Program-made: the position numbers and the translations under genes
Notes under the pieces: generated by a model
The model's input: only the letters and a program-made list of their open reading frames with translations
Database searches by the model: none
What the model was told of the DNA's origin: nothing
Shown here: positions 37,114-61,884 of the stretch, piece after piece
How positions within the stretch are numbered: position 1 is the stretch's first letter
Layout: each line of letters opens with the position of its first letter
Assembly: GCA_963663165.1 (NCBI GenBank)
Contig: OY760175.1
Coordinates: 5,504,001 to 5,568,000 of the forward strand
Source of the DNA: an uncultured Desulfospira sp.
GTDB taxonomy: Bacteria > Desulfobacterota > Desulfobacteria > Desulfobacterales > Desulfobacteraceae
Direction: 5' to 3'
DNA length: 64,000 nt

Positions 37114-37115
37114 TT

Positions 37116-38430: not shown

Positions 38431-38433
38431 TCA

Positions 38434-38700
38434 TTAGTACCGCATTTCCGAGTCGATACGTTCAGAAAGAAAAACCTTTAAAAGAGACTGATACGGAACA
38501 TCCTTTTTGTTTGCCAATACTTTCAAATCCTCAATCATGGATTCAGGCAACCGGATAGAAATTTTCCGAGTTGAAGGTTTTAGTTTCGAAAACACAACAT
38601 TCTCTGCATCAGACCAATCCATATAATCAGAAGAATCATTTTCTTGCCAAAATTTGCGTTCTTCGGCTTCACTGCTAAATTCAGGTATTTTCTTTTTCAT
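38434..38700 (-). CDS. brnA: BrnA/CopG-like antitoxin
   Basis: IPEFSSEAEERKFW, ISIRLP, VPYQSLLK. Confidence 0.85.
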   Translation of the reverse strand: MKKKIPEFSSEAEERKFWQENDSSDYMDWSDAENVVFSKLKPSTRKISIRLPESMIEDLKVLANKKDVPYQSLLKVFLSERIDSEMRY

Positions 38701-38905
38701 CTTAGATACCTTTCCATTTCCGCATCGGTCATATCCCGAGCGGATATGATTCTTATTTTATCGTTTCGAATGGTGAAAACAGCAAAAAATAAACGATTCA
38801 TCTCAGTTCGACCAAGCACGTAATAGCGGTCTTCAATAATAGAATGGTGCTTATCATATTTGATTATAAGCGGTCTGTTGAAGAAAATTTGTTCACATTC
38901 CAATA
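38697..38905 (-). pseudogene. brnT: BrnT toxin lacking its 5' part (fused to intron fragment)
   Basis: ECEQIFFN..HS..EDRY..LG.T..VFTIR..IRIISAR; sequence upstream of 38905 is intron. Confidence 0.8.
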
Positions 38906-39362
38906 CGGTTTCACCTGCCGAATGATCCCGGCGAAGATACGGGGTTTCCACGTTCCACACTATTGCCAATTAGTGGATGACTTAGGCCTGCCCTCTGCAC
39001 CGGCGGCGCAACATCTCACGCGGCAGTTAGGAAACCTGCATCCTGACCGCTCACCTTTTGGTCCAAGCTTACCAGCCTCTTTAGCTTGTTCTCCCTGACG
39101 GTACTTACGGAACATTCAACTACTTTGACCATATCATCCAAACCCTTGCCCTCACCCGGATTGAGGCTTCCAGGAGGGTATCTGCCTCACGGCTTCCACC
39201 CCTTCCACAGTTGCGGAATTCGGTACGTTGTCGGTTGGGCTTCACACCGTTGCCGGATGCACCGACCACCGCATGCCACCTAGGGTACCGGCAGGAGAAT
39301 GCCGGGTTTGGTCAGGACCGACTGGCCCGCCAAACAGCCAATAATGCGACTTCGTGTCGCAC
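38906..39362 (-). mobile_element. Group II intron 5' fragment (copy A, 457 bp)
   Basis: Starts GTGCGACACGAAGTCGC on minus strand; near-identical to 62063-62519. Confidence 0.8.
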
Positions 39363-39488
39363 CCCGAACGATAAGCTCAGCCGACCGGGGGCAAGTCGCC
39401 GAGCGCGTTGTAAAAGCCAAATCCTTTCATAAACCAAGGTCTTTGAAAAGTCGATAGACCCCGGGGTCGGCTGGAGCGGTTGTTAGCC
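39363..39488 (-). other. attC site
   Basis: Minus strand GGCTAAC-AACCGCTCCAGCCGACCCCGGGG...CCCCGGTCGGCTGAGCTTATC-GTTCGGG; extra C in the left arm. Confidence 0.85.
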
Positions 39489-39892
39489 ATTTGTTGTGTT
39501 CAATTATTCTTCGTATTCTATTTTTTTGGCGTTATATCTTTTAGATCCTGTTCTTTTTTATCATCCAAAACGACATGCACTATCTCACCATCAAGTTCAC
39601 CAAAATTTATAGCTTTCATATCGACTTGCCTTATACGTCGATTGTGCTGTGTGTGGTAATTCAATGTCAAGTCTTTAAGGTTCCAGGCAGTGCTGACGCA
39701 TGAATAAAAAAAGGTTGGCTTTAGTCGATCTAACCACTCCCTTTGGGGGGAGATCCAGCCTTTTTTAATTCAAAAAGGCAGTCCTTCAGACACTGACTAT
39801 GGCCGAAACGAAAGACGGTCCTTCGGTCCGAACATAGCGTTCCCACCTCTCTGCTTGGGAGAGTGTTTTCGATTACCCGTCCGTCGTTGCCG

Positions 39893-41419
39893 TCATACTA
39901 ATCGGAGTTGAAAGGGAGTGGACAGACGATCTTCCAGCCACATGTAATCCAGCCACGGGCCGGACATGGTATCCCGGACTAAACGAATCAGGCCCCGTGC
40001 GCCGGTATCTTCAATAATCCTGGCAAGCCGCTGCGAGTATCTGGCCAAAACGTTAAACATATGGCCCAGGCGCATCAAGGCATGATACCCCTTCATGACG
40101 TTCCAATCATACGAAAAACAGTGCTCGTACTCATATCCATGATGTTTCTCAACGAGAATACCGGTTTCAATACACCAACGGGAACGGGCGGCTATGTTGC
40201 ATCGTTCGTGAAGATTAAATCTGTCCAAAGGTTCGCTGGACAACCACACATGACGACTATTTTTCTTTTCCGGTTGACCGCTTTCCCGGCTAACCTCTTT
40301 CCAGCTCTCTTTGCATTCAACAACGTGCAGGATTTGACTTTTCTTGCCGTTCGGACCAAACCGGTAGTCAATGGCGTTGATCCACCGAAAAACCTGTTTC
40401 CTATTGCCCCATGTGTGTTGGTGGCAGTTTTCTGTATCGAGTGCGGCAAGCGTTTCAAATTCATTCATTACGCTGGGTAGAGCGTCATCTTTCAGTACAA
40501 TCATGAACTGCCATTTGTTTGTTCGGCAAATTTCTGCCACGGGGCCCTTGGCATAAAGCCCATCCAAAAGCACCATAATTTTTAGGGCGGGAAATGCCGC
40601 CTTCAGGCAAGAGGCTAACCGGTAAAACGCCTTGAGTTCGCAGTCCTGCTTATCATTAGCGGTATCTCCTTCGGTGTAGCTCAGGATTTCGCTTATCAGC
40701 GGAATGCTCATGCCATCGGAAAACGCAAGATTAGCTTCCAGAACATAGACATGATACTGTTTCCTGGTGCCATCCTCTTTCTTGATGTTACGTTCCAGGC
40801 ACTCTTCATCCCAAAGCCAGTCGCGTTTGAATTTACCGGTACCATCTATGGCAATCGGATAACAGCCATTGACCAGGTACCGTCGAAATTTCTTTTTCCG
40901 GATCAGATCTCTGACCAGATCGAGATGAAGCTTCTTGATTTGATTGATATCAATCTTAGACAATAGGCGTTTTAACGTATCATGATGGGGAAGCGTTTCA
41001 AGCTCCGGGAAAAAATATTGAAGATTCTTCCAGAACATCGGCCGGCTCATTTCTTTGTTGGCCTCACGGCAAGAAGCCATCTGAAACACAAAGGTCAGTA
41101 TCCCATAGATCATGAGTGTGGATATTTGGTGTTTTATCTTCTTAGGGTTTCGAGGGTCTTCAATCTTGGCCATACGTTTGAGCAGAATTGGCAGCTTAGC
41201 GCGAAAAATACTCATTTTCTCAGCCACGGCCTCATTGCGGATGCGCCCCTCCTGTTCTACACTTTCATATCGGCATTTGCAGTTAGAAATTGTGCCATGA
41301 GAGGGCGGCTGAAATCCCCTGGCCTCTTCATCCCGACGTAATTTTCTCTGCTCCTTTTTAAACTGCTTTCTTTTGGCCTTTATCTCCTCACGATTGGGGC
41401 GTCGGCTAGGCTTGCTCAT
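39893..41419 (-). CDS. DDE transposase (ISAs1/IS4-superfamily-like)
   Basis: EDPRNPKKIKH, AIDGT, LDGLY, RSRWCIE. Confidence 0.85.
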   Translation of the reverse strand: MSKPSRRPNREEIKAKRKQFKKEQRKLRRDEEARGFQPPSHGTISNCKCRYESVEQEGRIRNEAVAEKMSIFRAKLPILLKRMAKIEDPRNPKKIKHQISTLMIYGILTFVFQMASCREANKEMSRPMFWKNLQYFFPELETLPHHDTLKRLLSKIDINQIKKLHLDLVRDLIRKKKFRRYLVNGCYPIAIDGTGKFKRDWLWDEECLERNIKKEDGTRKQYHVYVLEANLAFSDGMSIPLISEILSYTEGDTANDKQDCELKAFYRLASCLKAAFPALKIMVLLDGLYAKGPVAEICRTNKWQFMIVLKDDALPSVMNEFETLAALDTENCHQHTWGNRKQVFRWINAIDYRFGPNGKKSQILHVVECKESWKEVSRESGQPEKKNSRHVWLSSEPLDRFNLHERCNIAARSRWCIETGILVEKHHGYEYEHCFSYDWNVMKGYHALMRLGHMFNVLARYSQRLARIIEDTGARGLIRLVRDTMSGPWLDYMWLEDRLSTPFQLRLV

Positions 41420-42291
41420 CCGATCTGCCTCAAAACCTGACGGAAATTATTCACCAGCGGATAAACGAAGATTTTTTTGGGACTGGTCCTGTAACTTCTA
41501 CCCTGCCGGACAAGCCCCTTTCCGCTGGTCATGCCAAGGTGTCTAAAATTGGCCGCCCGATAGCACGTCCCATCGAAGTGTTGTGGGTCGACAAAGGTCT
41601 CCAGCAAAGCCGGCCGATACCCCCAGCTCCGCTCCCAGTCTTGCACCAGATCTCTGACAATTTTACCCAATACGTGACTTGCCAGATACCGGACCTTGAC
41701 CCACGGAAAAATCAGGAAGCGTCCATTGTTTACAACAAATCCCAAGTTTCTTAAGCGTTCGTTGGTGCTCCAGCCGATCCATCGATCCCTCGGGGTCAGC
41801 GCCTTGGCCGCCCCTGAGAACAGCATACATCCCAATATGCGCTCTTGAGCTTGTATCAAATAACGCAGATGACATCCGAACGGCCGCTTGTAGCCAAGAT
41901 AATGGTAACGGTGCAGGTATTCATTAACCAGTGAGCGTTCTTCCGTGTCTTGTGCGACCCTGACAACGATCGGCCCGATATCCGAAAGCGTGCCCGCTAC
42001 CTTATCTTGGGGCTGGGTCCTGTCGTCCGCTACCGGCAGTTTCTGTTGAGAGCCCTTTATGGGACCGAGTTTCTCTTTTTCAGGCAACCGTATGAGACCT
42101 TGGGACTCCAGTCGCAGAAGCAATTTCCGGCAGGCATCCACCTTGTTCCTACCAGAAGCGGTATACCAGCCCAAATGTTCGCATATTGTATGAGCCAGTT
42201 CAGTCTGACTCAAATTCGAAAAGGTCTCTACTGTCTCGCAAATCTGTATAAGCTCTTCGTCTTTAATTTTCCGGCCACATTGGACAATCAC
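41416..42291 (-). CDS. DUF4338/DruA-like protein
   Basis: YHYLGY, RDRWIGW, NNGRFLIFPWV..LASHVL, ETFVD..GTCYRAAN. Confidence 0.85.
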   Translation of the reverse strand: MIVQCGRKIKDEELIQICETVETFSNLSQTELAHTICEHLGWYTASGRNKVDACRKLLLRLESQGLIRLPEKEKLGPIKGSQQKLPVADDRTQPQDKVAGTLSDIGPIVVRVAQDTEERSLVNEYLHRYHYLGYKRPFGCHLRYLIQAQERILGCMLFSGAAKALTPRDRWIGWSTNERLRNLGFVVNNGRFLIFPWVKVRYLASHVLGKIVRDLVQDWERSWGYRPALLETFVDPQHFDGTCYRAANFRHLGMTSGKGLVRQGRSYRTSPKKIFVYPLVNNFRQVLRQIG

Positions 42292-43631
42292 GACATCCTC
42301 CTCTTCAAATGTAGTGTCTCGATTGGGGGGGCGCTCATTCGTACCCTATGCTACATTATCAAAAGGCCGAAATTTTGTCTATTTAAATTTTGCGACAAAA
42401 TAATTTTGGATATCGAGCTGCGTCATTGATATCATTGACTATAAATTTTCATGCGTCAGCACTGGGTTCCAGGCGCTGGTCCAGATAGTTGATGAACGCA
42501 TCAAGTCAGTGTCGCCAGCGTGGCCCGCGCCTTCTGCTCCATCGGGGCCCAGTGGGAGATTAAAATTATCCAATATCCTGAAAGCCTCATAAAGAGTTTC
42601 ATCGGCTGTTTCGGTTTTTCTTGCTGTTTGTGTCCAGGCAACAGCTCTGACAAAACGCGAAGGTGGCGTGTTGTCACCTGGCAAGCCTATCATACCCGAA
42701 CCTGCTCCGGTTGGTGAAAACTTGACTCCTTCTAATTCCTTAGGTTCTACGGAAAACATAGATATGTTTACATAATTGCTTAAATTGGTCATGTGCCAAT
42801 CGTAGTTTGGGGCATTTGTAATAACTCCAAGAGGGGCATCATGAATCTTTAATTTTCCTTCAGTATATTCAATGACAATCGATTCTCCGGTTTTGTCAGT
42901 AACCATCCAATGGCCTTGAACAATTATACCAATAGCTTTTTCAACAACGCCTACTACAGTTACATTGGGCAAGCCATCACGCACTTCCTGCACGCTTGCA
43001 AATTCACCTAAAATATAGTTTGCAAGCTCCTGGCTTGAAATACTGTTTTGGGCATTCTCTTTTTTGTATTCGGGGTACACGGCATATCCGGGGTGGTAAA
43101 ACATACCCAGCGCCAAACCTTTTTCATTCATTCCATCCGAGATGAAATCTTTTCCAACCATGTCGAGCGCAACAATACCATAATTTGTGGTATAAGTTTT
43201 TCCATTGTTTCCATCCGGCGTTAAGCCGACATACTTGTACCCTCTCGGAATGATGGCGACTCTTGTATGTAGGTCGAAAGCTCCCCATTCCATAGTTCTG
43301 CCATAAACAACACCTCCGTCTTTAGCGGTTAATCGAATGCCTGTACAGGCAGTAGCAGGGAGTGAGAAAGCGTTAATCAACAGCGCTGATACCAACAGCA
43401 CCTGCCAGAATGTTAAATTGATCCGATTCATCTTCATATTGTCTCCTTATTAAATGAAATTTACAGTTATTTCATAGCATATGTCCTTGAGCATTTGTCC
43501 GGAAATACTGTTCTTTTTTCCGGGGTCAAAAGAATATTCATCCTTCTGAAATATGCCTTCGGATGTGTATGCTGTGTTGCATGTTCACAACCTTTGCGAT
43601 ACGCATCTACAGTCTTTTAACAGCGTAAAGC

Positions 43632-43700
43632 TGCTGATGGGCGCACCAGCTATTGCCGTCATTTGCTTTCCCATCCTCAAAGATTCTCCAAACTCTCTCA
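43632..43700 (-). other. Continuation of group II intron copy B beyond the IS21, with stub of the intron-encoded ORF
   Basis: GGAAAGCAAATGACGGCAATAGCTGGTGCGCCC (MTAIAGAP, ATG at 43662); no RT or domain V follows. Confidence 0.55.
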
Positions 43701-43825
43701 CCCGGATGGCCACCCAAAATCCCCCACTTATGGCCACCTCAAAATCCCCCACCTGAGCGTTTAAAAAATCAGGCGTAATCGCTGATAATCAGGAAATTCA
43801 GGAAAAACGGCGACAGAACGTTTAA

Positions 43826-45205
43826 GGGCCTCAGAAAAATTAATATCCACAATTCCATAGTCTGAATTCTGATTTCTATAGACAACATGGAATCGATAGT
43901 TTATGGTCAACATGGAAGATTACATAAAAAATACAGGAGGACCATGTTTGATCATTCTAAGCACAATTTACCCAAAACTATATCGGAATTAACGCCACCA
44001 CTAAAGGATTTTCTGAATACCACTCGAAGCAAATTAAAAGGCCATGAACGGCGCCAATTCATGGCACGCGTTGTCTCCCTTATGGGGCACGGCGGACAAC
44101 TAAAGGCTGAAAGAGAACTGGGTTGGGATCGGAAAACAATAATCAAAGGGCGACGGGAAATAGAAAGCGGAGTTACCTGTGTTGATAATTTTTCCGGACG
44201 AGGCCGGAAATCGTGTTTAGAACATTTTCCGAATTTAAAAGAGGACATAACTCGTATTGTAAACCCTATATGTCAGACTGATCCTACATTCCGTACCCAG
44301 AATTTATATTCCCCAATATCTGCGAATGAAGTATTCCGTCGATTAGTTGACGACATGGGATATGACCCTGAGAATATGCCAACAGTACGGACTCTATCCA
44401 CCATAATGAATAAATTGGGTTTTAAACTGAAGAAGGTCGCCAAAGCCAAGGTAAAAAAAAATTCCTGAAACAGACATCATTTTTGAATATGTGCATAGGA
44501 CAAACCAACTAGCCGATGAAACAGATGGCGTTTTACGTATCTCAATGGACGCAAAAGCCACTATTAAAATAGGGCCTTATTCCCGAGGCGGATATAGTCG
44601 TTGCAATCTTAAAGCGGCGGACCATGATTTTAAACCCGATTCCCTTTTGAAACTTTTCGGTATCAACATACCTGCTCTGGATGAAAATTATATGTACTTC
44701 ACTGAAAGCAACATCACCTCTGATTTCATGATTGATGCGCTGGAATCACTCTGGCCTTCTTTGAACGCAAGATTCGCCCCACATACACTGGTGATCAATC
44801 TTGATAATGGGCCGGAAAATAGTAGCCGAAGGAGCCAATTCATTAGTCGCCTCGTGGACTTTGCCAAATCAGCATTTGTAAATATTAGTTTGGTGTACTA
44901 TCCCCCGTACCACAGTAAATACAACCCAATAGAGCGAGTTTGGGGTGTTTTGGAAAATCATTGGAAAGGCGAATTGCTGAACAAAATTGAAAAGGTTCTC
45001 GGTCTATGTCGAACAATGACATGGAAAGGAGAAAATCCTGTCGTCAAATTAATCAAAGGTGTTTACCCGACAGGGGTACGTTTGGTCAAGTCCGCCGTGA
45101 ATAATATAGAAAACAAAATTATTCGGATTCCAGGGATTGAAAAATGGGCTGTTGATATTCCATGCTATGAGGAATGAATTGTGGGTTTTAATTTTACCAC
45201 ATCCC
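43826..45205 (+). mobile_element. ISAzo13-family IS
   Basis: Imperfect IR GGG..AAAATTAATATCCACAATTC / GAATTGTGGGTTTTAATTTT..CCC; TAA duplication. Confidence 0.88.
43945..45177 (+). CDS. ISAzo13 transposase in two frames joined at A9 (44453-44461)
   Basis: RGRK, QTDPTF, ISMDAKA..G.YSRGG, DNGPEN, YYPPYHSKYNPIER; -1 shift gives KKIPETD. Confidence 0.88.
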
Positions 45206-45254
45206 TAAATTCCCATGTATTACCCGATCAATCTAATCATGGGAGTTGGAAAGG

Positions 45255-47897
45255 ATGAACGTTTTGAAACCAGAAAAACAGGCAGCAATCAGCACATTAC
45301 TCAACAAGAATGTAAGCCAGCGAGAAATCAGCAGGAAAACTGGTATTGACCGGAAGACAGTACGCCGATACATACGTCAAAACGCTCCCGGATCAATCCA
45401 AATTCCCCCACCGGAGGCCACATCAAAATCCCCCACCCCGGCCACCGATCAGATTGGAAAGCCCCCACCCCGGCCACCGGCTGATTCAGTGGATTCAGGC
45501 CCCATACCGTTTCACGCAAGATCCGCCTGTGAGCCTCACCGGAAATGGATTGAAGACCAGGTTCGACTGGGCAGAAACGCCATGGCTATCTATCAGGATC
45601 TGGTGGAGCAGTTCAGTTTTGAACATAAGTACAACAGCGTTAAACGCTTTGTCCGCAAGTTAAAGCGCAAAGACCCCAAGCAGTTTGACCGACTGGAGTT
45701 TAGGCCTGGAGAAGAAGCCCAGGTGGATTATGGCCAAGGCGCCTTAACCAAGGGGCCAAATGGCAAATACAAACGTCCCCGGTTATTTGTGATGACTTTG
45801 AAATATTCAGGGCGCTCCTTTCGCAAGGTAGTTTGGAAATCCAGTCAAGAAACCTGGGCCAAGCTTCATGAAGAGGCGTTCCGCTATTTCGGTGGTTGCC
45901 CTGAATACGTGGTTTTAGACAATTTAAAAGAGGGTGTTATCAAGCCGGATATCTATGAGCCTGAGTTGAACCCGGTTTATGCAGCTGTACTGGCTCACTA
46001 CGGTGTAGTAGCAGACCCGGCCAGGGTACGAGATCCCGACCGCAAGGGCACGGTGGAGAATGCCGTTCAGCATACCCAGAATACAGCCCTGAAAGGAAAG
46101 CAGTTTGACACCATTGAAGCCCAGAATGAATGGTTGATGCACTGGGAAGAAAGATGGGCATCAACCCGGATACACGGCCGGAAGAAACGGCAGGTGGAGG
46201 AGATGTTCCAGGAGGAAAAGCCCCATTTGTCCCTCCCGCCGTTGAAAGGGTTTGAATATTTTCGCCAGGAGACCCGCACAGTGTATGATGACGGAACTAT
46301 CCAGGTAGACTCATGCTATTATTCCGCCTTGCCGGCGCCGTTGCACCAGGAGGTCATTGTCCGGATTTATGAAACACAGATTGACATCATCAATCCCCGG
46401 ACCATGGAAAAAATCCGCACCCATATCAAAGGCGACCGGCCCGGAGCGGTTAAGATGGAGGAGGAAGACCGGATCTTCAATCCATCCCGGCAAACAACCA
46501 GCCTTTTGAATAAAGCCGAAAGTATCGGTCCTGCGACGAGACAGCTATGCGAACTGATTTTCAAGGAAAAGGGCCGCCCCGGACAGCGCCGGATGCAGGG
46601 CATTGTCAATCTTGCCCGGAAACATGAGGCCGGCAGTATTGAGGCGGCGGCCAAAACAGCCATAGAGAAGGGATTGCGCAGTTACAAATCCTTTTGCCGG
46701 CTGGTTGAACACCAGAAATCATTTACAGATACCAGGCCACAAGAGGGTATCAGCCAGGAGCATGAACTGATCCGGCCGTCAAATGATTACGGTCAGTTTT
46801 TCGACACGTATGCTGCCGGTAACCAACCCGTTATCTCAAAACAGGACCTGCCAAATGTATGGCAAAGTGCCGACTGGTTGAAGGTGATGGCCGTTTTCGG
46901 CCTTGAGCCCCAAAAGAACAAAAAAGACGAAATCTGGATTCAATCCCCTTTTACCGGAGAACAGAACGCCTCTTTGCATGTGCATCTGGGGCAGAATGTC
47001 TACAAGGACTTCAGCAGCGGCAAAGGCGGTGGAATCCTCAATTTCTGCCAGGATCTGCTGGCCCGCAAAGGGCGGGTGATGAACTGCTACCAAGTGGCGG
47101 AATGGATGATCAGCGAAGGCATTTCAAGCCTGAACAAACCCGTGGCCGTTGAGCCCAAACCAACTCCAGAAAAGAATCAGGCCAACCCGCCGGTGAGTAT
47201 TGATCTGCAACCGTTTCTGGAAATCGTTCATCCGGAACTTGAAAACCGGGGGATTTCCAATAAGGCCTGCCGATACCTGGGATGCGGATATCTGCCCAAG
47301 AGAGCCACAGGCAAAAGTTCTCCATTAAACGGAAGAGTGGTCTTTCAGGTGCGAGGGATCAGTCCGGAACTAACCCCTGTCATTCTAAGCCATGTCGGCC
47401 GTGCATTGACAGACCATCAGGCTGACCTGGATGGCAGATACTGGGGCTTTCCTTTCTCCAAAAAGCTGGAAATCTACAACCAGGACAAACTGCTGCTGGA
47501 CCCAAACGCCAGGGATCAGGTGGAACGATATGGCTTGACCCTTGTGGAGGGCTTTTTTGATGTGGCAGCCCTGGTGTCCGCTGACTGCTTGAATGCAGGT
47601 GCTCTCATGGGCGCACATATGGCAGTGGAACAGGTTCTCCAACTCAGGTTTCTGGCATCACATATGGATATAAACAAGGTCAACCTTTTCCTGGACCGGG
47701 ATGAGGCTGGAAGTAAAGGGACCCGGGCTGCGGCATCACTACTTACGCACCATGGGTTTACTGTAAATGTGTTTGACTGGAACCACCGGTTCATCCGGCC
47801 CGGATGTCCACCTGCAGGGATCAAGCCCGATATAAAAGATCCGGCCGACATGTCTGAAACCCAGCTCAAATACTTAAGAAAACAAGGGATGATTTAA
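45255..47897 (+). CDS. istA: IS21 transposase IstA fused to a C-terminal DnaG-like primase region
   Basis: PGEEAQVDYG, LDNLKEGV, KGTVE; then SPF..E..SL..YKDFSSGKGG, LVEGFFD, FLDRDEAG, KDPAD. Confidence 0.9.
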   Translation: MNVLKPEKQAAISTLLNKNVSQREISRKTGIDRKTVRRYIRQNAPGSIQIPPPEATSKSPTPATDQIGKPPPRPPADSVDSGPIPFHARSACEPHRKWIEDQVRLGRNAMAIYQDLVEQFSFEHKYNSVKRFVRKLKRKDPKQFDRLEFRPGEEAQVDYGQGALTKGPNGKYKRPRLFVMTLKYSGRSFRKVVWKSSQETWAKLHEEAFRYFGGCPEYVVLDNLKEGVIKPDIYEPELNPVYAAVLAHYGVVADPARVRDPDRKGTVENAVQHTQNTALKGKQFDTIEAQNEWLMHWEERWASTRIHGRKKRQVEEMFQEEKPHLSLPPLKGFEYFRQETRTVYDDGTIQVDSCYYSALPAPLHQEVIVRIYETQIDIINPRTMEKIRTHIKGDRPGAVKMEEEDRIFNPSRQTTSLLNKAESIGPATRQLCELIFKEKGRPGQRRMQGIVNLARKHEAGSIEAAAKTAIEKGLRSYKSFCRLVEHQKSFTDTRPQEGISQEHELIRPSNDYGQFFDTYAAGNQPVISKQDLPNVWQSADWLKVMAVFGLEPQKNKKDEIWIQSPFTGEQNASLHVHLGQNVYKDFSSGKGGGILNFCQDLLARKGRVMNCYQVAEWMISEGISSLNKPVAVEPKPTPEKNQANPPVSIDLQPFLEIVHPELENRGISNKACRYLGCGYLPKRATGKSSPLNGRVVFQVRGISPELTPVILSHVGRALTDHQADLDGRYWGFPFSKKLEIYNQDKLLLDPNARDQVERYGLTLVEGFFDVAALVSADCLNAGALMGAHMAVEQVLQLRFLASHMDINKVNLFLDRDEAGSKGTRAAASLLTHHGFTVNVFDWNHRFIRPGCPPAGIKPDIKDPADMSETQLKYLRKQGMI

Positions 47898-48098
47898 GGG
47901 ATGGCCAGCTTTTAAAAGTGTAACGCCTATCCCCTATATTCATAACGAAATAATGTAACGACCAGATACCCCGCTGCCACACCCTGCTAAAAAATTATAA
48001 AAATCATACCCCGCATGCCGACCCCGCCGGTAGACCCCGCCGCTGACTTATTCAAAATTTGCTACATATAATCTCCGTGATTCGAATCTTGGAGAAAA

Positions 48099-48449
48099 AT
48101 GATGGCAAAGAATTCTCGTGGAAAACGCCCTTGCTCTATTTGCCGAAAATGGTTTGCTCCTGATGTAAGACAAAAAGGCCGACAGAGAACATGCAGTCCG
48201 GTTTGCCAAAATGAGCTTCATCGAAGGCAATGTGAAAACTGGAACAGGAAAAACAAAGCGGTCTCCATAAATAATTACCTGGCAAAGAAAATTGAAAAGG
48301 CTCAAAACCTTCAAACATCCGGGAAATTGCCTGTTTTGCCGCTGGAAGTTATTGAAACAGAATACGGTATCAAGCCGGCAATTATCGTCGAATATCTGGT
48401 TGCCCAGGTTATCTGTCATACCAAAGAAAAAATTCGAGAATTCCCATAA
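48099..48449 (+). CDS. Small Cys-rich putative zinc-finger protein
   Basis: GGAG RBS; CSICRKWF..QRTCSPVC + basic helix. Confidence 0.7.
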   Translation: MMAKNSRGKRPCSICRKWFAPDVRQKGRQRTCSPVCQNELHRRQCENWNRKNKAVSINNYLAKKIEKAQNLQTSGKLPVLPLEVIETEYGIKPAIIVEYLVAQVICHTKEKIREFP

Positions 48450-49090
48450 ACACCTCTGACTAATCGAATATTGATTTCAAGAGACAAGGTTATGTTAACC
48501 TCTTGTAATATTAAGATATACAAACAGAGTAATCGAATTTTGATTCTAAGAGACATCATGCGCATAAGTTGTTGATAATATATATAGATACAAACAGAGT
48601 AATCAGTATTCCAGTTCAAGAGGCAACTGACAGCCGACCCTGGCCGGTGATATAAAAAGGCATCTGAAATTCTAAAAATAAGGAGATGTCTCATGGCAAA
48701 CAGGTTTTCATCCCGGGAATTATTTGAACTGAGGAACAATATCCCTGTGGATATGCTGATCAGGGATCATTTTGTTATCGCCGGTGATCAAGGTCACCAC
48801 CTTTGCCGGCAACGAACCGTCCCCACCTGTGATATATTGACTTGTCAGGGCTTTTCGCAGGTGTAATATTTGAGGGAAGATACCATTCTCATTTGTATCG
48901 ATAATTTGCAACACAATCAGCTAAAACAAGATATATTAATGGAATAGCGCCATAGCAATCAATTTGGTTGCAGTAAAGCACCTGCGGTTGGAAGAACACG
49001 CTCACCAACAGGCGTCAATCCCGATTTTGGAAGTAAAAAAGCCGGGTTTTATACGAGGACGTATAAAACCCGGCAGATGTGAAGAGATGG

Positions 49091-49879
49091 TTATTGGGGT
49101 ATGGACTGGGGATTAGTAGTGTTCGTTGTGTTGGGACCTTCCGTTCGATAACTGAGTCCGTCCCGGATATTAATGATGTGAACATTGTGCATCAATCGAT
49201 CGATAATGGCATGAGTTACAACCGGATCTCCCAGAGTCGTCCCCCAATCCTCAAGACTGATTGAAGATGTGGCAATAAAGGCGGTATCGTCCTGGCAGAC
49301 GCTGATCAAATCCAGCAGCAGGCTGGGATATTCCGGCTTTGTGCGGATACCGCCCACATTATCTATGATCAGAAGATCAAAACGGCTTAAGCCGGCGACC
49401 ACCTCATCGGTGGATTCGTCAGCCAATGACGTATACAGCATGGCCAGAAGTTTTTGCAGGGAAAAAAATCGAACCTTATAACCCGCACGGCAGGCCTGGT
49501 CGCCAAGGGCTGAGGCAATATGAGTTTTGCCCGTGCCGGTTTTCCCAAAAATAAGCAGCGGCTGCTTTCGATCCACAAAGGATAGCTCCATCAGATCTTT
49601 GAGGTGCTCTACATTCAGGCTTGGCTGGAAGTTAAAATCAAAGTTATCAAAGGTCATGTTTCTGGGGAAATCCGCTGTTTTTAGCCGCTTTTCAAGGGAT
49701 CGGTGCTTTCTTGCCTTCATCTGTACGTCCACGATGTCGGCCAGGAACGCCAAATGACCGGATTGATTTTTCTGCGCCTTGGCAAGGGCCTGCTCCAGAT
49801 ATTGGGCCATATCCTTGAGATAAAGCTTGCGCAGTTTCTTTTTAACCTGGTCGCTTAAGTTTTCATTCATCCTTGCCAT
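49091..49879 (-). CDS. istB: IS21 helper ATPase IstB
   Basis: TFDNFDFNFQP, GKTGTGKTH, LLIIDN, AIIDRLMH, G.SYR. Confidence 0.92.
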   Translation of the reverse strand: MARMNENLSDQVKKKLRKLYLKDMAQYLEQALAKAQKNQSGHLAFLADIVDVQMKARKHRSLEKRLKTADFPRNMTFDNFDFNFQPSLNVEHLKDLMELSFVDRKQPLLIFGKTGTGKTHIASALGDQACRAGYKVRFFSLQKLLAMLYTSLADESTDEVVAGLSRFDLLIIDNVGGIRTKPEYPSLLLDLISVCQDDTAFIATSSISLEDWGTTLGDPVVTHAIIDRLMHNVHIINIRDGLSYRTEGPNTTNTTNPQSIPQ

Positions 49880-51365
49880 CCATTGTTTTTCTGTTAATCA
49901 GGTGGTCATACCTTTGTGGGTTATCCTGCTCCACTGAACAGGATTTCAAATAGCTCCGGGTGTTGTTGGGCAGACCTTTTCCGGCTTTTGTTTTGTTTGA
50001 AGCTTTAATGTTTTTCCCCTGGATGATACGCAGGACGGCATCAGCACTAAATGAGTCAAACCGCGTGGCATGAGCTAATGCCCCTGAGACCACATCCGCA
50101 CCATAGCGGTCGGCATATTTGAGGATACGGCCCATATGGTACCCGGCAGCGCTTTTCCGGGTTTCTTTCAATCCGTTATAATAGACCTGCGCCACCTCAC
50201 CCAATCTCAAAAAGGCATCTTTGAGCAATTGACTCTGGCCTGTCATCTTCCTGTACAGGGCTTCATGTTCAGGCAACACCTGCCTGTCTTCTTGAGTGTA
50301 AACATGCCGGCAATCCATCGTTTCATCACACCATATTTCAATGTGATCACGGAACAAACGGACCTGGACATAACGGCCTATCAGTTCAGGATTGGCAGAG
50401 TATCGTTTTTTGTCGATGGTGACACAAAAATCAACGTTAACAAGTCGACGTACTTCCTTAAAAAATTGATCCGTTTTATTCCATGGCACAGGCTTTAACA
50501 GACTTTTTTCCCTTGCCAGGCGATCCACAGGCCTTTCCCGGGTGGTACCGTGGATACGGACATTGGCTGTGTTCGCCCGCCAGGCATCGGCCTTGTTATT
50601 GAGATCCTCAAGATCAATAAATTCTTTGCCTCTAAGGAAATTGTCTTCAATATACCGGAACGGCCGCTCTACCTTGCCGTGTCGTTCCTTTTTGCCGGGT
50701 AGAAGGATGACGATCTCAAAGTCATACTCCTGGGCAAACCGTTTAAATACCGGATTGATCCAAACGGTTCCGGGGCCCGTGTGCCTGCCCACCGTGGTCA
50801 TATTGTCATAGGTGATTTTGTGGGGAACCGCCCCGATCTCGTCAAACGCCTCTTCATGCAACCGGATCACTGATTCTATAGTTTCATCAAAAAAGTGACG
50901 TATAAATATCCAACGACTGAAGCACAATACAAAAGATCCGGTATGCACCACCACGCGTTGTCCACCCATGTACACACTATGAGGACTCCAGTCCATCTGC
51001 CCCTCATCTCCAGGGGCATGATCAATTGGAGGCCTGGGCACCTTCAAGCCTTTGGGCCGGATTATTCTGATATACTCCTTGAGGATGGAGTATCCGCCCG
51101 TGTACCCCAACAACGTGATCTCTTCCAACACCCGAACCCCGCTGAGATGTTTTTCTTTTACAAGGTAACCGATTTTGGCCTTGTAAGGATCAAGTTTGCT
51201 TTTGCGGGGACTGGTTTGAGGCGCATTAATAACATTGTTGCAGCCCAATGCCCTGCGCACTGCCTTGCGGCTGTGCCCGGTCTGTTTTGCTGTCTGACGG
51301 ATGGATGCTGTGCGCCCAAAGACTTTACGAATACGTTCCTGTTCCTTTTCACTCAACCGGCTCAT
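49863..51365 (-). CDS. istA: IS21 transposase IstA
   Basis: SKLDPYK, GYTGGYSILK, PGDEGQMDW, YDNM, GKVER, HGTTRERP. Confidence 0.93.
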   Translation of the reverse strand: MSRLSEKEQERIRKVFGRTASIRQTAKQTGHSRKAVRRALGCNNVINAPQTSPRKSKLDPYKAKIGYLVKEKHLSGVRVLEEITLLGYTGGYSILKEYIRIIRPKGLKVPRPPIDHAPGDEGQMDWSPHSVYMGGQRVVVHTGSFVLCFSRWIFIRHFFDETIESVIRLHEEAFDEIGAVPHKITYDNMTTVGRHTGPGTVWINPVFKRFAQEYDFEIVILLPGKKERHGKVERPFRYIEDNFLRGKEFIDLEDLNNKADAWRANTANVRIHGTTRERPVDRLAREKSLLKPVPWNKTDQFFKEVRRLVNVDFCVTIDKKRYSANPELIGRYVQVRLFRDHIEIWCDETMDCRHVYTQEDRQVLPEHEALYRKMTGQSQLLKDAFLRLGEVAQVYYNGLKETRKSAAGYHMGRILKYADRYGADVVSGALAHATRFDSFSADAVLRIIQGKNIKASNKTKAGKGLPNNTRSYLKSCSVEQDNPQRYDHLINRKTMDGKDE

Positions 51366-52185
51366 GGTGCCCTCCTATCAACTCATTGAGCCGTTTCATC
51401 CGGGCACCGGCCCGCCCTATAAAGTCTTTAAGGGCGCAGACCTTGGAACCATTGATCGTGCCGCTGCCAATGCAGTTGTTCAGCTTGGACATTTTTGAAA
51501 GAATGGCATCAATAATCAAATAATAATTTTCCTTGTCCCGGCTTACGGACTCCAGCGCTTGCCTGGGAGATTCAAGCAGGTGGCGCCTGGCTCCGGGATC
51601 ACTGGTCTTGCACCACAGGTCCACCAGACGGTTCACCTCCCGGGTTTTAAGGTTGTGTTTTTGAATACAAAGAGAAAAATCGGCCTGGGTTGCAGGCTGC
51701 AACCGCGCCAGTGACGGACCGACCCCGGCAGGGAGCAGCCCAAGTTTGATATCGTGGACAATTTCCGGGGTCAGGCTGCGGATCATGGAAAGCCGTCGGC
51801 AAACCCAGCTTTTATGCCGCTCAAGGAGTATCGCCGCTTCAACCTGATTGAGCCCTTCTATTTCTACAAGTTCCCAGACCACCAGGGCCTCCATGATCGT
51901 GGAAAACCCATCCGGGCGGTTCAGAAGGTAGAGCAATGCCTTGGCTTCTGCAGCACTTTTTTTCAACACAGCCACTTTAAGCGTCTTCATGCCAAGAAGG
52001 CCTGCACAGCGATGCCGCTTGAAACCGTCTATTAAAATATGGCAACCTCCTTGCTCAACCGCAACAACAGCCGTTAATTGGCCATGCTTGACTAATGAAG
52101 CCGCCATCTTTTCCTGGGCACCGGCGTGGACCGGCCGCAGGAATCCCAGACGTAAATCCAATTGGTCCGGACGCAGGTTAATCAT
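51349..52185 (-). CDS. ParB N-terminal domain + HTH protein
   Basis: SLVKHGQLTAV..LIDGFKR, Q.EAA.LLERHKSWVCRRL. Confidence 0.85.
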   Translation of the reverse strand: MINLRPDQLDLRLGFLRPVHAGAQEKMAASLVKHGQLTAVVAVEQGGCHILIDGFKRHRCAGLLGMKTLKVAVLKKSAAEAKALLYLLNRPDGFSTIMEALVVWELVEIEGLNQVEAAILLERHKSWVCRRLSMIRSLTPEIVHDIKLGLLPAGVGPSLARLQPATQADFSLCIQKHNLKTREVNRLVDLWCKTSDPGARRHLLESPRQALESVSRDKENYYLIIDAILSKMSKLNNCIGSGTINGSKVCALKDFIGRAGARMKRLNELIGGHHEPVE

Positions 52186-52600
52186 TTGGACCTCCGGCTA
52201 TATTGAGGCTTTTTTGAAAAATCTCCCCGATTGAGATAAGGCCACTGCCGCCGGTGGGTTGCTTAGGCGCCTTGGACGTCGGTGCTGCAACATTTTTTTT
52301 GGGAAGGGAAAGCACTTGAAACAGTCGGCCGTCAAAGGCTATGAGATCTTTATCAATGAGCCCGTTCCTGGCCTGGATATATTCGTCCAGGCGGATGGCC
52401 GTCAATGAACAGATTTTATCATAGCCGTAATAAGACATTCCCTGACGATCTGCCACCATCACCAGAAAAAGGTACAGCACAAGCTCCTGGTGGTTCAGGC
52501 TGCCCCAATACCCCTGGCGGATAAACCGGTGGCTTATCCATGCGAAACTGCCGTTAATTTTTCTAATTCGATGGTCCTTCAACGGTTCCTTGGTAATCAT
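52178..52600 (-). CDS. Small wHTH-like accessory protein, homolog of 1311-1721
   Basis: GGAGGG RBS; FAWISHRF, LYLFLVMVADRQGMSYYGYDKIC, DLIAFDG..QVLSLP. Confidence 0.82.
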   Translation of the reverse strand: MITKEPLKDHRIRKINGSFAWISHRFIRQGYWGSLNHQELVLYLFLVMVADRQGMSYYGYDKICSLTAIRLDEYIQARNGLIDKDLIAFDGRLFQVLSLPKKNVAAPTSKAPKQPTGGSGLISIGEIFQKSLNIAGGPND

Positions 52601-53033
52601 TTTTACCCTCCTTGGAAATATAATGATGAAAATTGTCGCCTGAATACCGTCTGCCATATCCCCGCCGGGGGAATTGATCTACAATCAGACCTTTTCTTCC
52701 GCAAAAACAGCAGCATGGATGGGAAGACGGAGGCGTTACCCGAAGACTATCATTGGATTTGGAGGGTGTTGAAGTGTCATCATCCACGGTTTTTTGAGAA
52801 TTTCTTAATCTCCGCTCTTTTTCCTGCCGACGATGGGCTAACTTACCTTTTTCAGTTTGTCGATATTTCTTCTGGGCGTTACGGTGAGCTTCTCTTTGAG
52901 CAGTTTCCCGACAGGATTCACAGCAATAAATCTGTCCACGCCAGCAACTGTGGCAGATATAAAAAATGCTGCCGCATCGTTTACACTGGATTTCTTTTAA
53001 TAAAACGATCTCCACATTTTCCGTTCTTGCCAT
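52563..53033 (-). CDS. Cys-rich putative zinc-binding protein, homolog of 902-1288
   Basis: CKRC..CHSCWRGQIYCCESC, YRQTEKGK, CCFCG..DQFPRRGYG. Confidence 0.82.
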   Translation of the reverse strand: MARTENVEIVLLKEIQCKRCGSIFYICHSCWRGQIYCCESCRETAQREAHRNAQKKYRQTEKGKLAHRRQEKERRLRNSQKTVDDDTSTPSKSNDSLRVTPPSSHPCCCFCGRKGLIVDQFPRRGYGRRYSGDNFHHYISKEGKNDYQGTVEGPSN

Positions 53034-53061
53034 AAAACGGAAGCCGTGATTATATGAAGAT

Positions 53062-53142
53062 GTTGGGTAGCTTCCGTATTTTATATGGATGTCTGCTTTT
53101 TGAAGGCTCGAAGCGGCCTACTTCGAGCCTTCCTTATTTTTC
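53062..53142 (+). ncRNA. Candidate small RNA divergent from the IS21-ParB leader gene
   Basis: TTGCCA (53027)-N17-TTATAT promoter-like; hairpin GAAGGCTCGAAG-CGGCCTA-CTTCGAGCCTTC then T-rich tail. Confidence 0.5.
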
Positions 53143-53592
53143 AAATCCATCCAAGAAACAAAACCAAATTCAAAGAAAAAAAGGAAGAAAATATATTTTT
53201 AAAATATGGGATGAAGAAGAGACAAAGTAAAAAGGATGGAGGCTTTGTTACCGGCTAAAGGGGTGGCCTGCTTCATCGCCATAGGTGGGGACGGTTACGA
53301 CCGGCGGTAACAATCATTTACAGATTCCATCCAAGATCAGGGATGGCTACTTTCGTTTTCTATGCCCTTTGTGCAATGAATTTCAAACCGCTGTAAATCC
53401 AGCCACGAACCTGGCCAGGTGCTTCAGATGCGAAAAGAATTTTAATACCATCGACCTTGTCATGAAAATCAAGGGTTATGGCTTCCGGGATAGTGTTTTG
53501 TTTTTGAAACAAATAAATACGGCCCCCCAGGTTCAGACCGCAAAATTGACGGCTCTTGCTGCTATGGTCGGCAGACCCATGCCGGCAGGGCA

Positions 53593-54156
53593 GTGAATAT
53601 GGAACGGTTGCTTGAGCTTGAAACCCTGATTGGTCGCAACCAGGAATGTTTTTACAAAATCGGCCGGGCCTTGAAGGAAATTCGAGATAACCGTTTGTAC
53701 AAACAGGCTTTGTTTGAGTCATTTGAAACATATACCAGGCAGCGATGGGATATGGGCAAGGCTTATGCCTACCGCCTGATCAGAGCCTATGAAGTGATCT
53801 ACAATTTGTCGCCAATTGGCGACAAGCTACCTGCCAACGAATCCCAGGTCCGTCCCCTGACTCAAATGGACTCCATAGAACAACGCCGTATCTGGAGGGA
53901 GATTATAAACAGCGGCATGGAACTGACCGCACAAAATATCAAAAAATTTATTGAGGCCCGGAAAACGGCTCCGGCAAGTAGACCGGATCTGACAAATAAA
54001 ATTTCAAATGAATACATGGCTGTTGTAAAGGCAATGCTTGAGCAGGTCCGTGTGGCACAACATGATCATTGGCAGCAGACCTCCCGCCAAGCCGCATTGT
54101 TGTGGCACCGGGTCATATACGAAAAGATCATATCAAAGGGGGCAGATAATGGATGA
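53593..54156 (+). CDS. Helical accessory protein of element X
   Basis: IGRALKEIRD.RLY..FE.Y...W......YRLI, LPANESQVRPL; overlaps neighbours. Confidence 0.75.
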   Translation: MNMERLLELETLIGRNQECFYKIGRALKEIRDNRLYKQALFESFETYTRQRWDMGKAYAYRLIRAYEVIYNLSPIGDKLPANESQVRPLTQMDSIEQRRIWREIINSGMELTAQNIKKFIEARKTAPASRPDLTNKISNEYMAVVKAMLEQVRVAQHDHWQQTSRQAALLWHRVIYEKIISKGADNG

Positions 54157-55813
54157 CCTAAGCATTGACGACCGCTTCCACTTACTGCTGCACAAAAAAA
54201 TCATGAACAAAACTGGATCTGCCAAGAGAAGATCCAAAAAATATTACAAGGACCAGTACAAAAAAAACGGGATTATCCCGCCTCCCCTTTTACTGGTTGA
54301 AAAAGGAATTATGGATGGCCGCAAGTGCAGCGGGCGGCCCAGAGTCATAGACGAACAAACCCAAAGGCGGTTTATTGAAATGGTCAAGGCGTCATGCGAC
54401 CCCTCATCCCAGGGGTTCATTTTTATCACCCGGAGAGCCAGGACCATTAAAAATTACCACTGCTGGCTTGAGGAAGAGCTGGGGAAAAAAATCAGTCTCC
54501 CTGCACTTTGGCGATGCGCCAAAAGGGAGAATCTCAAATTTTACCTGGAAAAAGAGGACGATCAGGAGCCGTCACCGGCACGTTATACCTTCAAATCGGT
54601 TACGGTGTTTACCTTGATCCAGGTTGACGGTTGCAAGTTCCAATATTTAAGAATCAGAGATGAACATGGCAACTGGCAGAAACCACGGGTAATTGAAATA
54701 TTCGATACCGGCTCCAGGAAACTGTTTATTATGGAATTCTATTTTACCGAAAGCAATCTGAATTCTGTGGATCTTTTTACCCGTTTTTTGTTGTGCACAC
54801 CTTTTCCTTTGATAACAATCGGTATCAGGCCTGATCGGGCAAAGGGATTTTTAAATCTCAAGCGTCCCATTAATGCGATTAACCTTGCGCATTCTACGCC
54901 GGGCGGTTTTTATTTGGCACCGGATTTTTCAAGGGCGCATTCCCCCAAAGATAAGGCGCATCTGGAATCTTCACACCGAAGCCTGCATAATTTTGAAATA
55001 CGAATTATCAAAGCGTTTGAGAGCAGGATTGTGAAAACCGTTACCGAATATGACTTCAAGCGGGGAAGAAAGGAAAAAGTTACTGTAACCCTTCTTGATA
55101 TCACCCTTGATGAATTGAGGAACAGCACTGTGCTCAGCCAATACCGCAACGAACACAATCATACACAACATTATTTTACCGAAGACGGCGTAGTCAGTGC
55201 CTGGGTGCCGGCACAAAAGTTTGATGATTTTTTATCAAATCAGACAGACACCCTGAATTTTACCCCGGAGCAGGTTCAGGAATATATGAAATACGGTTAC
55301 AGGAAAATCAAAGCCACGGTATCCAAAAATAGAACCATCCGCCATGACAAAAGGGATTATTATGTGACCAGTGGTGCAGACCGGTTCAGCAGGCATAAAA
55401 GTACACCGGTAAAAATATCCAGATACAGGGACAAACTTTTTATCTTTGAGCCCAGTGAAGACGGCATCCTGATAGGCGAAGCCATTGCAAAAAAGCCGTT
55501 TGACAGCCCGCCGTCTCCAGCGACCGCTCCTGTACCCGACGAACTCGACACCATTATCGCTCTTTTGGAAAAGCACAATATGGCCGTTGACCGGCCTATT
55601 TTAATCGAAGTTTACCATAAAGGCCTCACCTTGTCCCTGGCGGAGCAAGTGCTTCACCATAATCAATCAAGGTACGCAGATTACATGAAAAAAATGAACC
55701 AGCCTGAGGAACGTAAAAATCAAGCCTTATTTAATGCTTTTATGCTTGATTGCCAAAAATCGTTAAATACGAATCAGGTGGCCACTTATGCATCCCACGG
55801 AGATATGCCATGA
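54149..55813 (+). CDS. Divergent DDE integrase/transposase of element X
   Basis: SGRPR, IQVDGC, EIFDTGSR, IRPD, PKDKAHLESSH. Confidence 0.75.
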   Translation: MDDLSIDDRFHLLLHKKIMNKTGSAKRRSKKYYKDQYKKNGIIPPPLLLVEKGIMDGRKCSGRPRVIDEQTQRRFIEMVKASCDPSSQGFIFITRRARTIKNYHCWLEEELGKKISLPALWRCAKRENLKFYLEKEDDQEPSPARYTFKSVTVFTLIQVDGCKFQYLRIRDEHGNWQKPRVIEIFDTGSRKLFIMEFYFTESNLNSVDLFTRFLLCTPFPLITIGIRPDRAKGFLNLKRPINAINLAHSTPGGFYLAPDFSRAHSPKDKAHLESSHRSLHNFEIRIIKAFESRIVKTVTEYDFKRGRKEKVTVTLLDITLDELRNSTVLSQYRNEHNHTQHYFTEDGVVSAWVPAQKFDDFLSNQTDTLNFTPEQVQEYMKYGYRKIKATVSKNRTIRHDKRDYYVTSGADRFSRHKSTPVKISRYRDKLFIFEPSEDGILIGEAIAKKPFDSPPSPATAPVPDELDTIIALLEKHNMAVDRPILIEVYHKGLTLSLAEQVLHHNQSRYADYMKKMNQPEERKNQALFNAFMLDCQKSLNTNQVATYASHGDMP

Positions 55814-56457
55814 AAGAGGATTTTATCAGTGATAAACGAAGGGTCTCATACCTGTCTGCTACTTATAACAGGATATACAGGGGTCAAAGCGTACTCATTG
55901 AAGGGGATTTTGGCGCAGGCAAAACTCGTTTTTTAAGACTGCTGCGGCCTAAAAAGCTCCATGCCGTATGGGTCGAGTCTCTGTTCAACATCCATGAAAC
56001 CCTGGCATCCATACTTAAAGAACTGAATTATGAGACCTCCGCCACTTACCGCCGGACTCCCCAGTACCTGAAAACGATCTGCAACCTATCCAATTGTTTT
56101 ATCATCATAGATGAAGCCAACGACCTGGACTCCCGGGTTTGGCCATATCTCAAACGAATTATTGATGCCGGTGTCCCCATCGTATTTGCAGGGCTCCCCA
56201 AGGTCAGAACCTATTTGAGCCGGAATCATCCCGATATACTCAGCCGGCTCAAAACTCTGATTTTATATCCCATAGAGGTCGAGGACTTCATTGAAAAATA
56301 CAAAGATATCCAGCATGAAGCAGTTGAACAGATATATATGGCCGTCAAAGGCGACATGAGAAAATTTAAAGAAATCTGTACAGACTGTCAGGACAGGGCA
56401 AAGGAGTTGAACCACAACTTTGTTGATATCAATCTTGCCCTGGAATTTATATCCTGA
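55810..56457 (+). CDS. AAA ATPase (TnsC/MuB-like); last 5 codons displaced to 60667-60684
   Basis: GDFGAGKT, IIIDEA, IVFAG, ILSR; original end ..EFISDLPPQ* reconstructs across the insertion. Confidence 0.85.
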   Translation: MKEDFISDKRRVSYLSATYNRIYRGQSVLIEGDFGAGKTRFLRLLRPKKLHAVWVESLFNIHETLASILKELNYETSATYRRTPQYLKTICNLSNCFIIIDEANDLDSRVWPYLKRIIDAGVPIVFAGLPKVRTYLSRNHPDILSRLKTLILYPIEVEDFIEKYKDIQHEAVEQIYMAVKGDMRKFKEICTDCQDRAKELNHNFVDINLALEFIS

Positions 56458-56592
56458 GAATGGTCACAAAAAATCATGGAAAAATTGAAGATAATTTGCA
56501 AGATATGTCAGGTTTGAGGCAGAAGTTCCCCTGTTTATCTCGCAAATAATCGTGAAACTCCTGCCTCCCCACCCAATAACAGGGCAGGAGAT

Positions 56593-57180: not shown

Positions 57181-57295
57181 TCTCACGCAGAAGATGGGCG
57201 TGGCCTTGGGCGCTCAACTGTTCTATCAAAGGGGCCGGGATTTTTATCAGCATTTCGCTGAAAATTTTAACTCAAAATTGAAAGGACCCCGGCCT

Positions 57296-59565: not shown

Positions 59566-59574
59566 GAGAACAAT

Positions 59575-59757
59575 ATGGGTATTTATGATGATCCGGACAT
59601 GAAACTGGAAGAAATCACACAGGAATTGGAACATTTTATCCTGGATATGGTCCTTGCCGGACTTGAAAGCTTGAATATGGAATATCGGGCCTTCAGGCGA
59701 TTCCAGAAACAAAGGCTCACGGAAAAGAACCGTCATAAAGAACACGAGCCGTTTTGA
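59575..59757 (+). CDS. Small hypothetical protein
   Basis: AGGAG RBS, 60 aa, operonic position. Confidence 0.5.
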   Translation: MGIYDDPDMKLEEITQELEHFILDMVLAGLESLNMEYRAFRRFQKQRLTEKNRHKEHEPF

Positions 59758-59794
59758 ACGTACGCCCGGACTCCAAAGGTCCGGGCCTGCCTCA

Positions 59795-61775: not shown

Positions 61776-61884
61776 AAAAAGGAAAAAATCGCAGATTTTA
61801 AGAGCATAACTTAGATCTCAATATTCTGTCGCTGGGGGATTTTGACCCGGCCACAGGTGGGGGATTTTAAAGTGGCCATCCGGG

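Follow-up and report, generated by a model that had tools for sequence, protein, structure and literature searches.

Layout of the locus

The window analysed here is the whole 64,000-nt stretch at positions 5,504,001-5,568,000 of contig OY760175.1, from assembly GCA_963663165.1 of an uncultured Desulfospira sp. It holds two copies of a group II intron, A and B, each directly 3' of an attC site, in the following arrangement (window positions):

38434..38905, minus strand: brnT, 5'-truncated (Pfam positions 18-77 only), and a CopG-type antitoxin gene; the toxin-antitoxin cassette headed by copy A
38906..39362, minus strand: copy A, a 457-nt 5' fragment of a group II intron with domain I and the start of DII
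38965-38957, minus strand: 3' strand of helix I(ii) in copy A (nt 398-406), pairing with nt 16-24 (39347-39339)
38970-38963, minus strand: loop singled out in the preliminary description of copy A (feature span 38957..38970); not a guide
38995, minus strand: EBS3 of copy A (G368), its coordinate carried over from a gap-free match to the reference copy
39026..39031, minus strand: EBS1 of copy A, CCUAAC; 6/7 pairs to GTTCGGG when the U before it is counted
39091..39095, minus strand: EBS2 of copy A, GGGAG; 4/5 pairs to CTTAT
39363..39488, minus strand: attC 5' of copy A, with R'' GGCTAAC (39488-39482), IBS2 CTTAT (39375-39371) and R'/IBS1 GTTCGGG (39369-39363)
39518..43437, minus strand: cassette between the two attC sites, with a choloylglycine-hydrolase-family gene (43437-42439) whose probable C-terminus ends at 39518
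about 39688-42464: insertion sequence dividing the hydrolase cassette, with a DDE_Tnp_1-associated transposase and a DruA-domain ORF; 8-bp duplication read by eye
43453..43699, minus strand: continuation of copy B, of the ORF-less type, equivalent to nt 628-870 of the ORF-less reference; domains V-VI missing
43700..61884: nest of insertion sequences of about 18 kb dividing copy B, including IS21-type IstB and rve genes
61885..62519, minus strand: 5' part of copy B, 635 nt
62188-62183, minus strand: EBS1 of copy B, CCUAAC; 5/6 pairs
62252-62248, minus strand: EBS2 of copy B, GGGAG; 5/5 pairs
62520..62648, minus strand: attC 5' of copy B, with R'' GCCGAAC (62648-62642), IBS2 CTCCC (62531-62527) and R'/IBS1 GTTGGC (62525-62520)

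The preliminary description had both copies beginning 3-4 nt past the R' GTT of an attC and running in the direction of the cassettes, and both points hold. GTTCGGG precedes the first base of copy A, at 39362, and GTTGGC that of copy B, at 62519; both introns are on the minus strand, which is the strand of the cassette ORFs. The attC-type palindromes at whose ends they sit are 126-129 bp long, have R'' boxes of GGCTAAC or GCCGAAC and form bottom-strand hairpins of -20 and -23 kcal/mol. Over the length of copy A the two introns are identical at 445 of 457 positions, and both match Rfam RF02012 (group-II-D1D4-7) with 92-94 bits.

Both copies are non-functional, broken fragments, a point that had been missed before. 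The remainder of copy A is deleted along with the start of brnT, leaving the intron fragment fused to a start-less brnT, and copy B is divided by the nest of insertion sequences, in which terminal inverted repeats and a 4-bp duplication were read by eye. The reconstructed ancestral order is attC, intron B, hydrolase cassette, attC, intron A and brnT-antitoxin cassette, the insertions having come later. A promoter scan of 38300-39800 gave four hits versus 2.1 expected.

At 35900-38430, an IS91-family transposase gene and an upstream, split tyrosine-recombinase gene abut the brnT-antitoxin cassette. The junction of the IS91-family element with the cassette is GAAC, resembling the cassette's R'', and its far end holds an attC-like start. 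A second, partial copy of this element (C1:4180216-4181315) abuts and truncates another intron copy, and an end of the insertion sequence at 39688-42464 also breaks an intron copy at C1:1879647.

Intron class and reverse transcriptase

A full copy of the intron is 2311 nt long with GTGCG...AT ends, its domains V and VI (DV and DVI) having been read by eye. The GUGYG...AY ends, domain I, DV with its AGC triad, DVI with its bulged A and the RF02012 matches are those of a group II retroelement; the window copies are without DV and DVI. An intact 522-aa ORF with a YADD motif is present in one of five long copies, at C1:5575411, some 7 kb outside the window. The reverse transcriptase (RT) gene has a 373-nt deletion (L001:7311-7685) that is common to long copies, seen at C1:1888829, at C1:4185668 and in run X1; because they share it, the spread of defective copies seems to have followed the deletion.

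A Pfam search of the RT protein found RVT_N, RVT_1 and GIIM domains and no HNH hit. The protein scores 554 bits against PDB 6ME0, which we take to be the RT of the T. elongatus IIB intron, compared with 129 bits against LtrA and 101-121 bits against class C RTs. The scores, the domains and the missing HNH hit therefore indicate an endonuclease-less RT of CL/IIB1 type, not of class C. EBS1-IBS1, EBS2-IBS2 and EBS3-IBS3 pairings, as expected of CL/IIB1 introns, are all present. Classification of the RT, which had been proposed as a check, thus gave a CL-type enzyme (554 bits to 6ME0 versus at most 121 to class C RTs) and confirmed the earlier view of the intron as IIB/CL-like and not class C; the assignment is at the level of CL.

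Insertion junctions across the genome

Intron 5' ends were collected from the 6.74-Mb genome by BLAST, and this tabulation of insertion sites bore out the attC placement: all 15 intact 5' ends lie at the R' of an attC, following GT(T/C) by 3 nt in ten cases and by 4 nt in five, which is far beyond chance. All are on the top strand where an attC-like palindrome ends, and wherever the downstream ORFs were read the introns run in their direction. The intron-bearing attC retains GTT and the 3-4 following bases of R', and the 3' exon opens with C or T at 13 of 13 readable 3' junctions. Two of the copies occupy short, divergent attC sites, one of which offers just 3/5 EBS2 pairs. The genome also has one nested copy with its first three bases interrupted, two 3'-only remnants and one further copy in which an IS91-like element takes the place of the 5' end.

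In the nest (C1:4191082 and 4188780, L002), a long copy lies three bases inside an ORF-less copy; the sequence reads GTC-GTG, long copy, CGACAC, an insertion again at GT(C)+3. At C1:388063 (L011), a 91-nt 5' fragment of the intron follows an attC and has a CRISPR-like repeat array a few hundred bases away.

The sites qualify as attC by their R''-L''-L'-R' palindromes, seen on folding, by the cassette array and by the presence of an integron integrase. A single IntI is encoded in the genome (TIGR02249, 456 bits, over the cut-off); it adjoins one array, and the array in the window is without an adjacent intI. This IntI (C1:4194199-4195608, L005) is long, 469 aa in all, of which about 150 aa form an N-terminal extension. 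Counting sites with a complete 3' end, the attC family comprises 49 members, 13 occupied and 36 empty; the profile was built from the 13 occupied sites, so that the 36 empty ones, mostly in three arrays, are its independent part. The reconstituted R' is clearly complementary to the R'' of the downstream cassette in one (C1:1888829) of five usable copies with an adjacent next attC.

Since the junctions differ between copies, the copies are considered independent insertions. Integrase shuffling or duplication of one intron-bearing cassette would also multiply the intron, and it would suit an intron that lies inside the downstream cassette of a genome with an IntI and in which some pairs of copies have the same 5' exon tail. 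Against such passive spread, the downstream cassettes and the 3' exons differ and there are four variants of EBS1, and we regard it as very improbable.

A role for the lagging-strand template in top-strand preference is an idea drawn from PMC5371416. The GC-skew extremes of the genome are at about 4.0 and 0.76 Mb and dnaA is at 2.12 Mb (C1:2116872), with arrays on both sides. By GC skew, dnaA thus lies mid-replichore, suggesting a rearrangement or an origin away from dnaA.

Location and pairing of the exon-binding guides

For covariation analysis, 182 loci were gathered (79 from genomes, 79 from metagenomes and 24 from the host's order), 147 of them with a 5'-end call. The alignment held 144 sequences, that is 143 loci and the reference copy, and the 132 distinct ones with at least 20 nt of exon were used; a few wrong start calls were kept among them, which makes the counts conservative. 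The guides were located by covariation, EBS1 blind, a single-sequence MFE fold of domain I having given no usable answer.

EBS1 is the loop at intron nt 326-341, which is fully paired (6/6) to the final six bases of the exon in 71 of the 132 sequences, compared with 6.3 (maximum 13) when shuffled. EBS2 lies at nt 264-276 (5/5 pairs in 29/132 versus 8.5 shuffled), and EBS3 is G368, with Watson-Crick pairing in 79% of cases versus 27% expected (n=70). Pair counts for the Id3 stem were 43-64%, blurred by differences in loop length, and were set aside.

In this genome EBS1 is CCUAAC, the complement of GTTAGG, with the variants CUCAAC, CGGAAC and CCGAAC, all four of which keep AAC opposite GTT. EBS2 GGGAG pairs with CTCCC, the L'-R' spacer of the genome's attC family, at 5/5 positions in 11 of 13 copies. 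Across the 13 copies with readable guides, EBS1 makes 68 of 83 possible pairs and is perfect in none; copy B, for example, has a C-C mismatch at -1. Within the genome, EBS1 variants are only weakly matched to the sites that they themselves occupy (permutation p=0.034).

The preliminary description had drawn attention to another loop, which differs between the copies and, in copy B, matches R''. The difference, AUUGGCAA in one copy and AUCGGCAA in the other, is real, and the R'' match is due to chance. A 7/8 match of the AU(U/C)GGCAA loop, to TTGCCGAA, does exist upstream of copy B, as expected if pairing with R'' directed insertion; it is found in that one copy of 13 only. The best that the other 12 offer is 5-6/8, and an R'' of this kind is lacking in three further copies that also carry the AUCGGCAA loop. 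Taken as EBS1, the loop pairs perfectly in 5/132 sequences versus 3.6 shuffled, and the lack of covariation with the exons in the 132 relatives refutes the idea. The stem proposed for it is paired at chance level. Its 3' half belongs instead to helix I(ii), in which 82-97% of sequences pair nt 398-406 with nt 16-24, using several pair types and showing compensatory changes. A guide function of this loop can be virtually discounted.

Relatives of the intron

A FastTree phylogeny of 167 RTs placed the intron within a clade of 27 with a local support of 1.0. Exon calls were available for 20 members, and after L153 and L067 had been dropped as wrong starts, 18 were usable. Fifteen of these 18 are of attC type, partly judged by eye, and the automatic attC detector applied to relatives is loose (z from +0.1 to -5.8, one locus without a call). 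Of the other three, L014 is in tandem behind another copy, L060 is at a GTT inside an ORF, and L131 (partial RT, support 0.82) combines an altered EBS1 with a non-attC exon that matches it. In the relative L137, EBS1 pairs perfectly although no clear hairpin is present. Relatives evidently leave attC where the sequence allows it (L137, L060, L131).

Pairing was further assessed in 22 relatives chosen for GTT-type exons, whose loci are akin and not phylogenetically independent, so that p-values overstate. The three variable EBS1 bases make 39 of 48 pairs in 16 of these attC-type loci versus 28.5 when permuted, and EBS2 makes 94 of 110 pairs in the 22 versus 82. The cut position tracks EBS1: loops that end in AAC-U cut at GTT+3 (15/15) and those that end in AACG at GTT+2 (6/7).

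Eight of 109 other loci end in GTT+1 to +4, and five of the eight are copies in one Bacteroidales genome. These five (L037-L040, L042) belong to a separate RT clade and sit at GTT+1 of attC-like sites with an EBS1 of (C/U)AACGU, an apparent case of convergent attC targeting. Several other genomes of the host's order carry ORF-less versions of 805-849 nt in attC-type sites (L126, L127, L128, L133, L140).

Target selection

The preliminary description had proposed structure-directed attC targeting by another intron lineage. An attC-specialised, sense-oriented lineage outside class C is indeed present. Since EBS1 pairs with the R' box, EBS2 with the spacer and EBS3 with the following base, there is no need to invoke structure as the chief mechanism. 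That description had set its proposal against class C membership or EBS-IBS pairing unrelated to attC, and the outcome lies half way: the pairing is ordinary, yet it is aimed at attC, and the intron is not class C. Ordinary EBS-IBS retrohoming directed to the 3' end of attC on the top strand, rather than hairpin recognition in the manner of class C, is probably the mechanism. By sequence comparison, EBS1 (NNNAAC) pairs with the GTT core of R' and the next 3-4 bases, EBS2 (GGGAG) with the spacer CTCCC between L' and R', and EBS3 (G) with the C or T that follows.

Pairing by these rules fits more sites than are used. Outside attC, 11 sites in the genome match by strict Watson-Crick pairing with at most one mismatch, 493 when wobble is admitted and 3,223 with any EBS1 variant; none of these 11, 493 or 3,223 sites in the genome is occupied. 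Among the empty attC sites, 27 of 36 are acceptable targets, so EBS fit does not predict occupancy. Given that no copy in the genome pairs perfectly and that many non-attC sites of equal match stand empty, exclusivity for attC should require one more determinant. Group II RTs contact the distal 5' exon, and contacts of the RT with this region, here the L' box, would be the simplest candidate. Adding a distal five-base motif, CT[GC]AG at -17..-13, leaves 1-18 sites outside attC; the motif was chosen post hoc from the L' box and thus cannot separate a reading of sequence by the protein from a reading of the hairpin; a need for a hairpin or for single-stranded DNA would give an identical picture.

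The ribonucleoprotein could alternatively need a folded or extruded attC top-strand hairpin, or exposed single-stranded DNA, with relaxed EBS pairing setting the register only, so that a IIB intron would have converged on class C behaviour. The 15 of 15 intact 5' ends at attC despite perfect pairing in 0 of 13 copies, with hundreds to thousands of equally matched non-attC sites empty, would agree with this, as would the use of short, divergent attC sites and relatives that pair at only 3-4 of 6 positions (L135, L213). A hairpin was already speculated upon for the intron UHB.I2 by Sonbol and Siam (PMC7923331). However, EBS2 is present and covaries, whereas class C introns exchange IBS2 for a hairpin; the cut position follows EBS1; perfect EBS1 pairing is no rarer in attC-type relatives (13/22) than in all relatives (71/132); the distal 5-nt motif reproduces the specificity without structure; and non-attC insertions occur (L137, L060). 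A requirement for the hairpin is thus held to be unlikely.

Selection after insertion offers a different account of exclusivity, namely that the intron enters many EBS-matching sites and persists only at cassette junctions, especially before self-promoted toxin-antitoxin cassettes. In this genome such cassettes make up 11 of 16 that are headed by an intron, compared with 7 (strict, p=0.001) or 9 (loose, p=0.005) of 36 following an empty attC. Toxin-antitoxin cassettes carry promoters and kill on excision (PMC13108822, PMC8876359), and the bias fits retention in promoter-bearing cassettes that cannot be lost (PMC13108822). A survival filter leaves the complementarity of EBS1 and EBS2 to attC across genomes and the fixed register unexplained, and the first ORF downstream of relatives is toxin-antitoxin-like in just 2 of 18, a count that stands without a control set; the association is thus unsupported outside this genome. 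As a replacement for targeting such a filter is improbable, and it is best viewed as a second layer over it.

Returning to retrohoming by guide pairing, the attC crossover falls at G|TT, and insertion just 3' of it would leave the attC largely intact. The intron would become the head of the next cassette, travel with it and possibly splice out of cassette transcripts. A more far-reaching proposal, conceivable though doubtful, is that a IIB lineage independently turned integron specialist by joining an EBS1 that is degenerate, its AAC fixed and its variable bases loose, to a recognition of the attC top strand in folded form. It would land behind the crossover, leave a site that still works and ride on cassettes, preferably toxin-antitoxin ones that cannot be lost, and a second CL lineage, in Bacteroidales, would have converged on the same core in another register.

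Comparison with known systems

Reviews treat attC targeting as a trait of class C introns acting on the bottom strand (PMC4424553, PMC8876359). These IIC-attC introns, such as S.ma.I2, are class C elements inserted in the bottom strand and antisense to the cassettes (PMC3001079, PMC4424553, PMC7923331). The present intron resembles them as an endonuclease-less group II intron specialised on the attC sites of cassette arrays (PMC3001079, PMC7923331). In IIC-attC introns, a TTGT|T site at R'' is used, a hairpin replaces IBS2 and the gene is parted from its attC (PMC3001079, PMC7923331). The intron described here, in contrast, is CL/IIB1, enters the top strand at R' and uses EBS2; neither a class C IEP or RNA, nor a bottom-strand TTGT|T in R'', nor a stem-loop in place of IBS2 was found. 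An Enterobacter cloacae IIC intron that inserts in the top strand shares strand and orientation at attC but belongs to class C (as cited in PMC7923331).

Among solved structures the closest RT is 6ME0, at 554 bits. EcI5 is the nearest relative to the introns of T. elongatus and likewise CL/IIB1 (PMC2882425, Mohr et al. 2010). Multi-copy spread, EBS variants, ORF-less copies, driven in trans in that system, and nested copies are shared with TeI3/TeI4 and EcI5, whose targets, unlike those here, are not described as attC; the 562-aa TeI4 protein also has an En domain that is missing from the present RT (PMC2882425).

The nearest counterpart is UHB.I2, a single CL1/IIB1, En-minus intron that follows an attC directly and has the sense orientation (Sonbol and Siam 2021, PMC7923331). 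The two have in common a IIB1 RNA, an endonuclease-less CL-type IEP, the orientation of the cassettes, a position immediately after attC and an array with toxin-antitoxin systems and, by eye on the printed sequence, a comparable N-terminus of the IEP and, where EBS1 lies, a loop of the same design that ends in AAC(G) (PMC7923331). In the available text on UHB.I2, EBS1 is not tied to R', no EBS3 bulge is given and a hairpin is speculated upon, and the published exon logo may already mark IBS1 in R' (PMC7923331). A literature search, mainly of journals outside subscription, returned no description of this intron lineage beyond PMC7923331. As far as its sequence tells, the intron accordingly adds a member to a group reported once and uncharacterised, that of CL/IIB1 introns in the sense strand which would be programmed by pairing to the R' core of attC.

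The genome presents a second solution to attC targeting, at the mirror position and with ordinary programmable guides, and its 15 natural junctions and 36 empty sites define the target rule. Whether a IIB intron at attC needs a hairpin, mere speculation for UHB.I2, becomes directly testable. From the sense orientation and the insertion point behind the crossover one would predict, in contrast to IIC-attC introns, little cost to the expression and recombination of cassettes, and such introns could therefore hitch-hike on cassettes between hosts. UHB.I2 is a single metagenomic case (PMC7923331), whereas the present lineage offers 15 junctions in one genome, ORF-less derivatives, a clade of relatives and covariation of EBS1, EBS2 and EBS3 with the exons.
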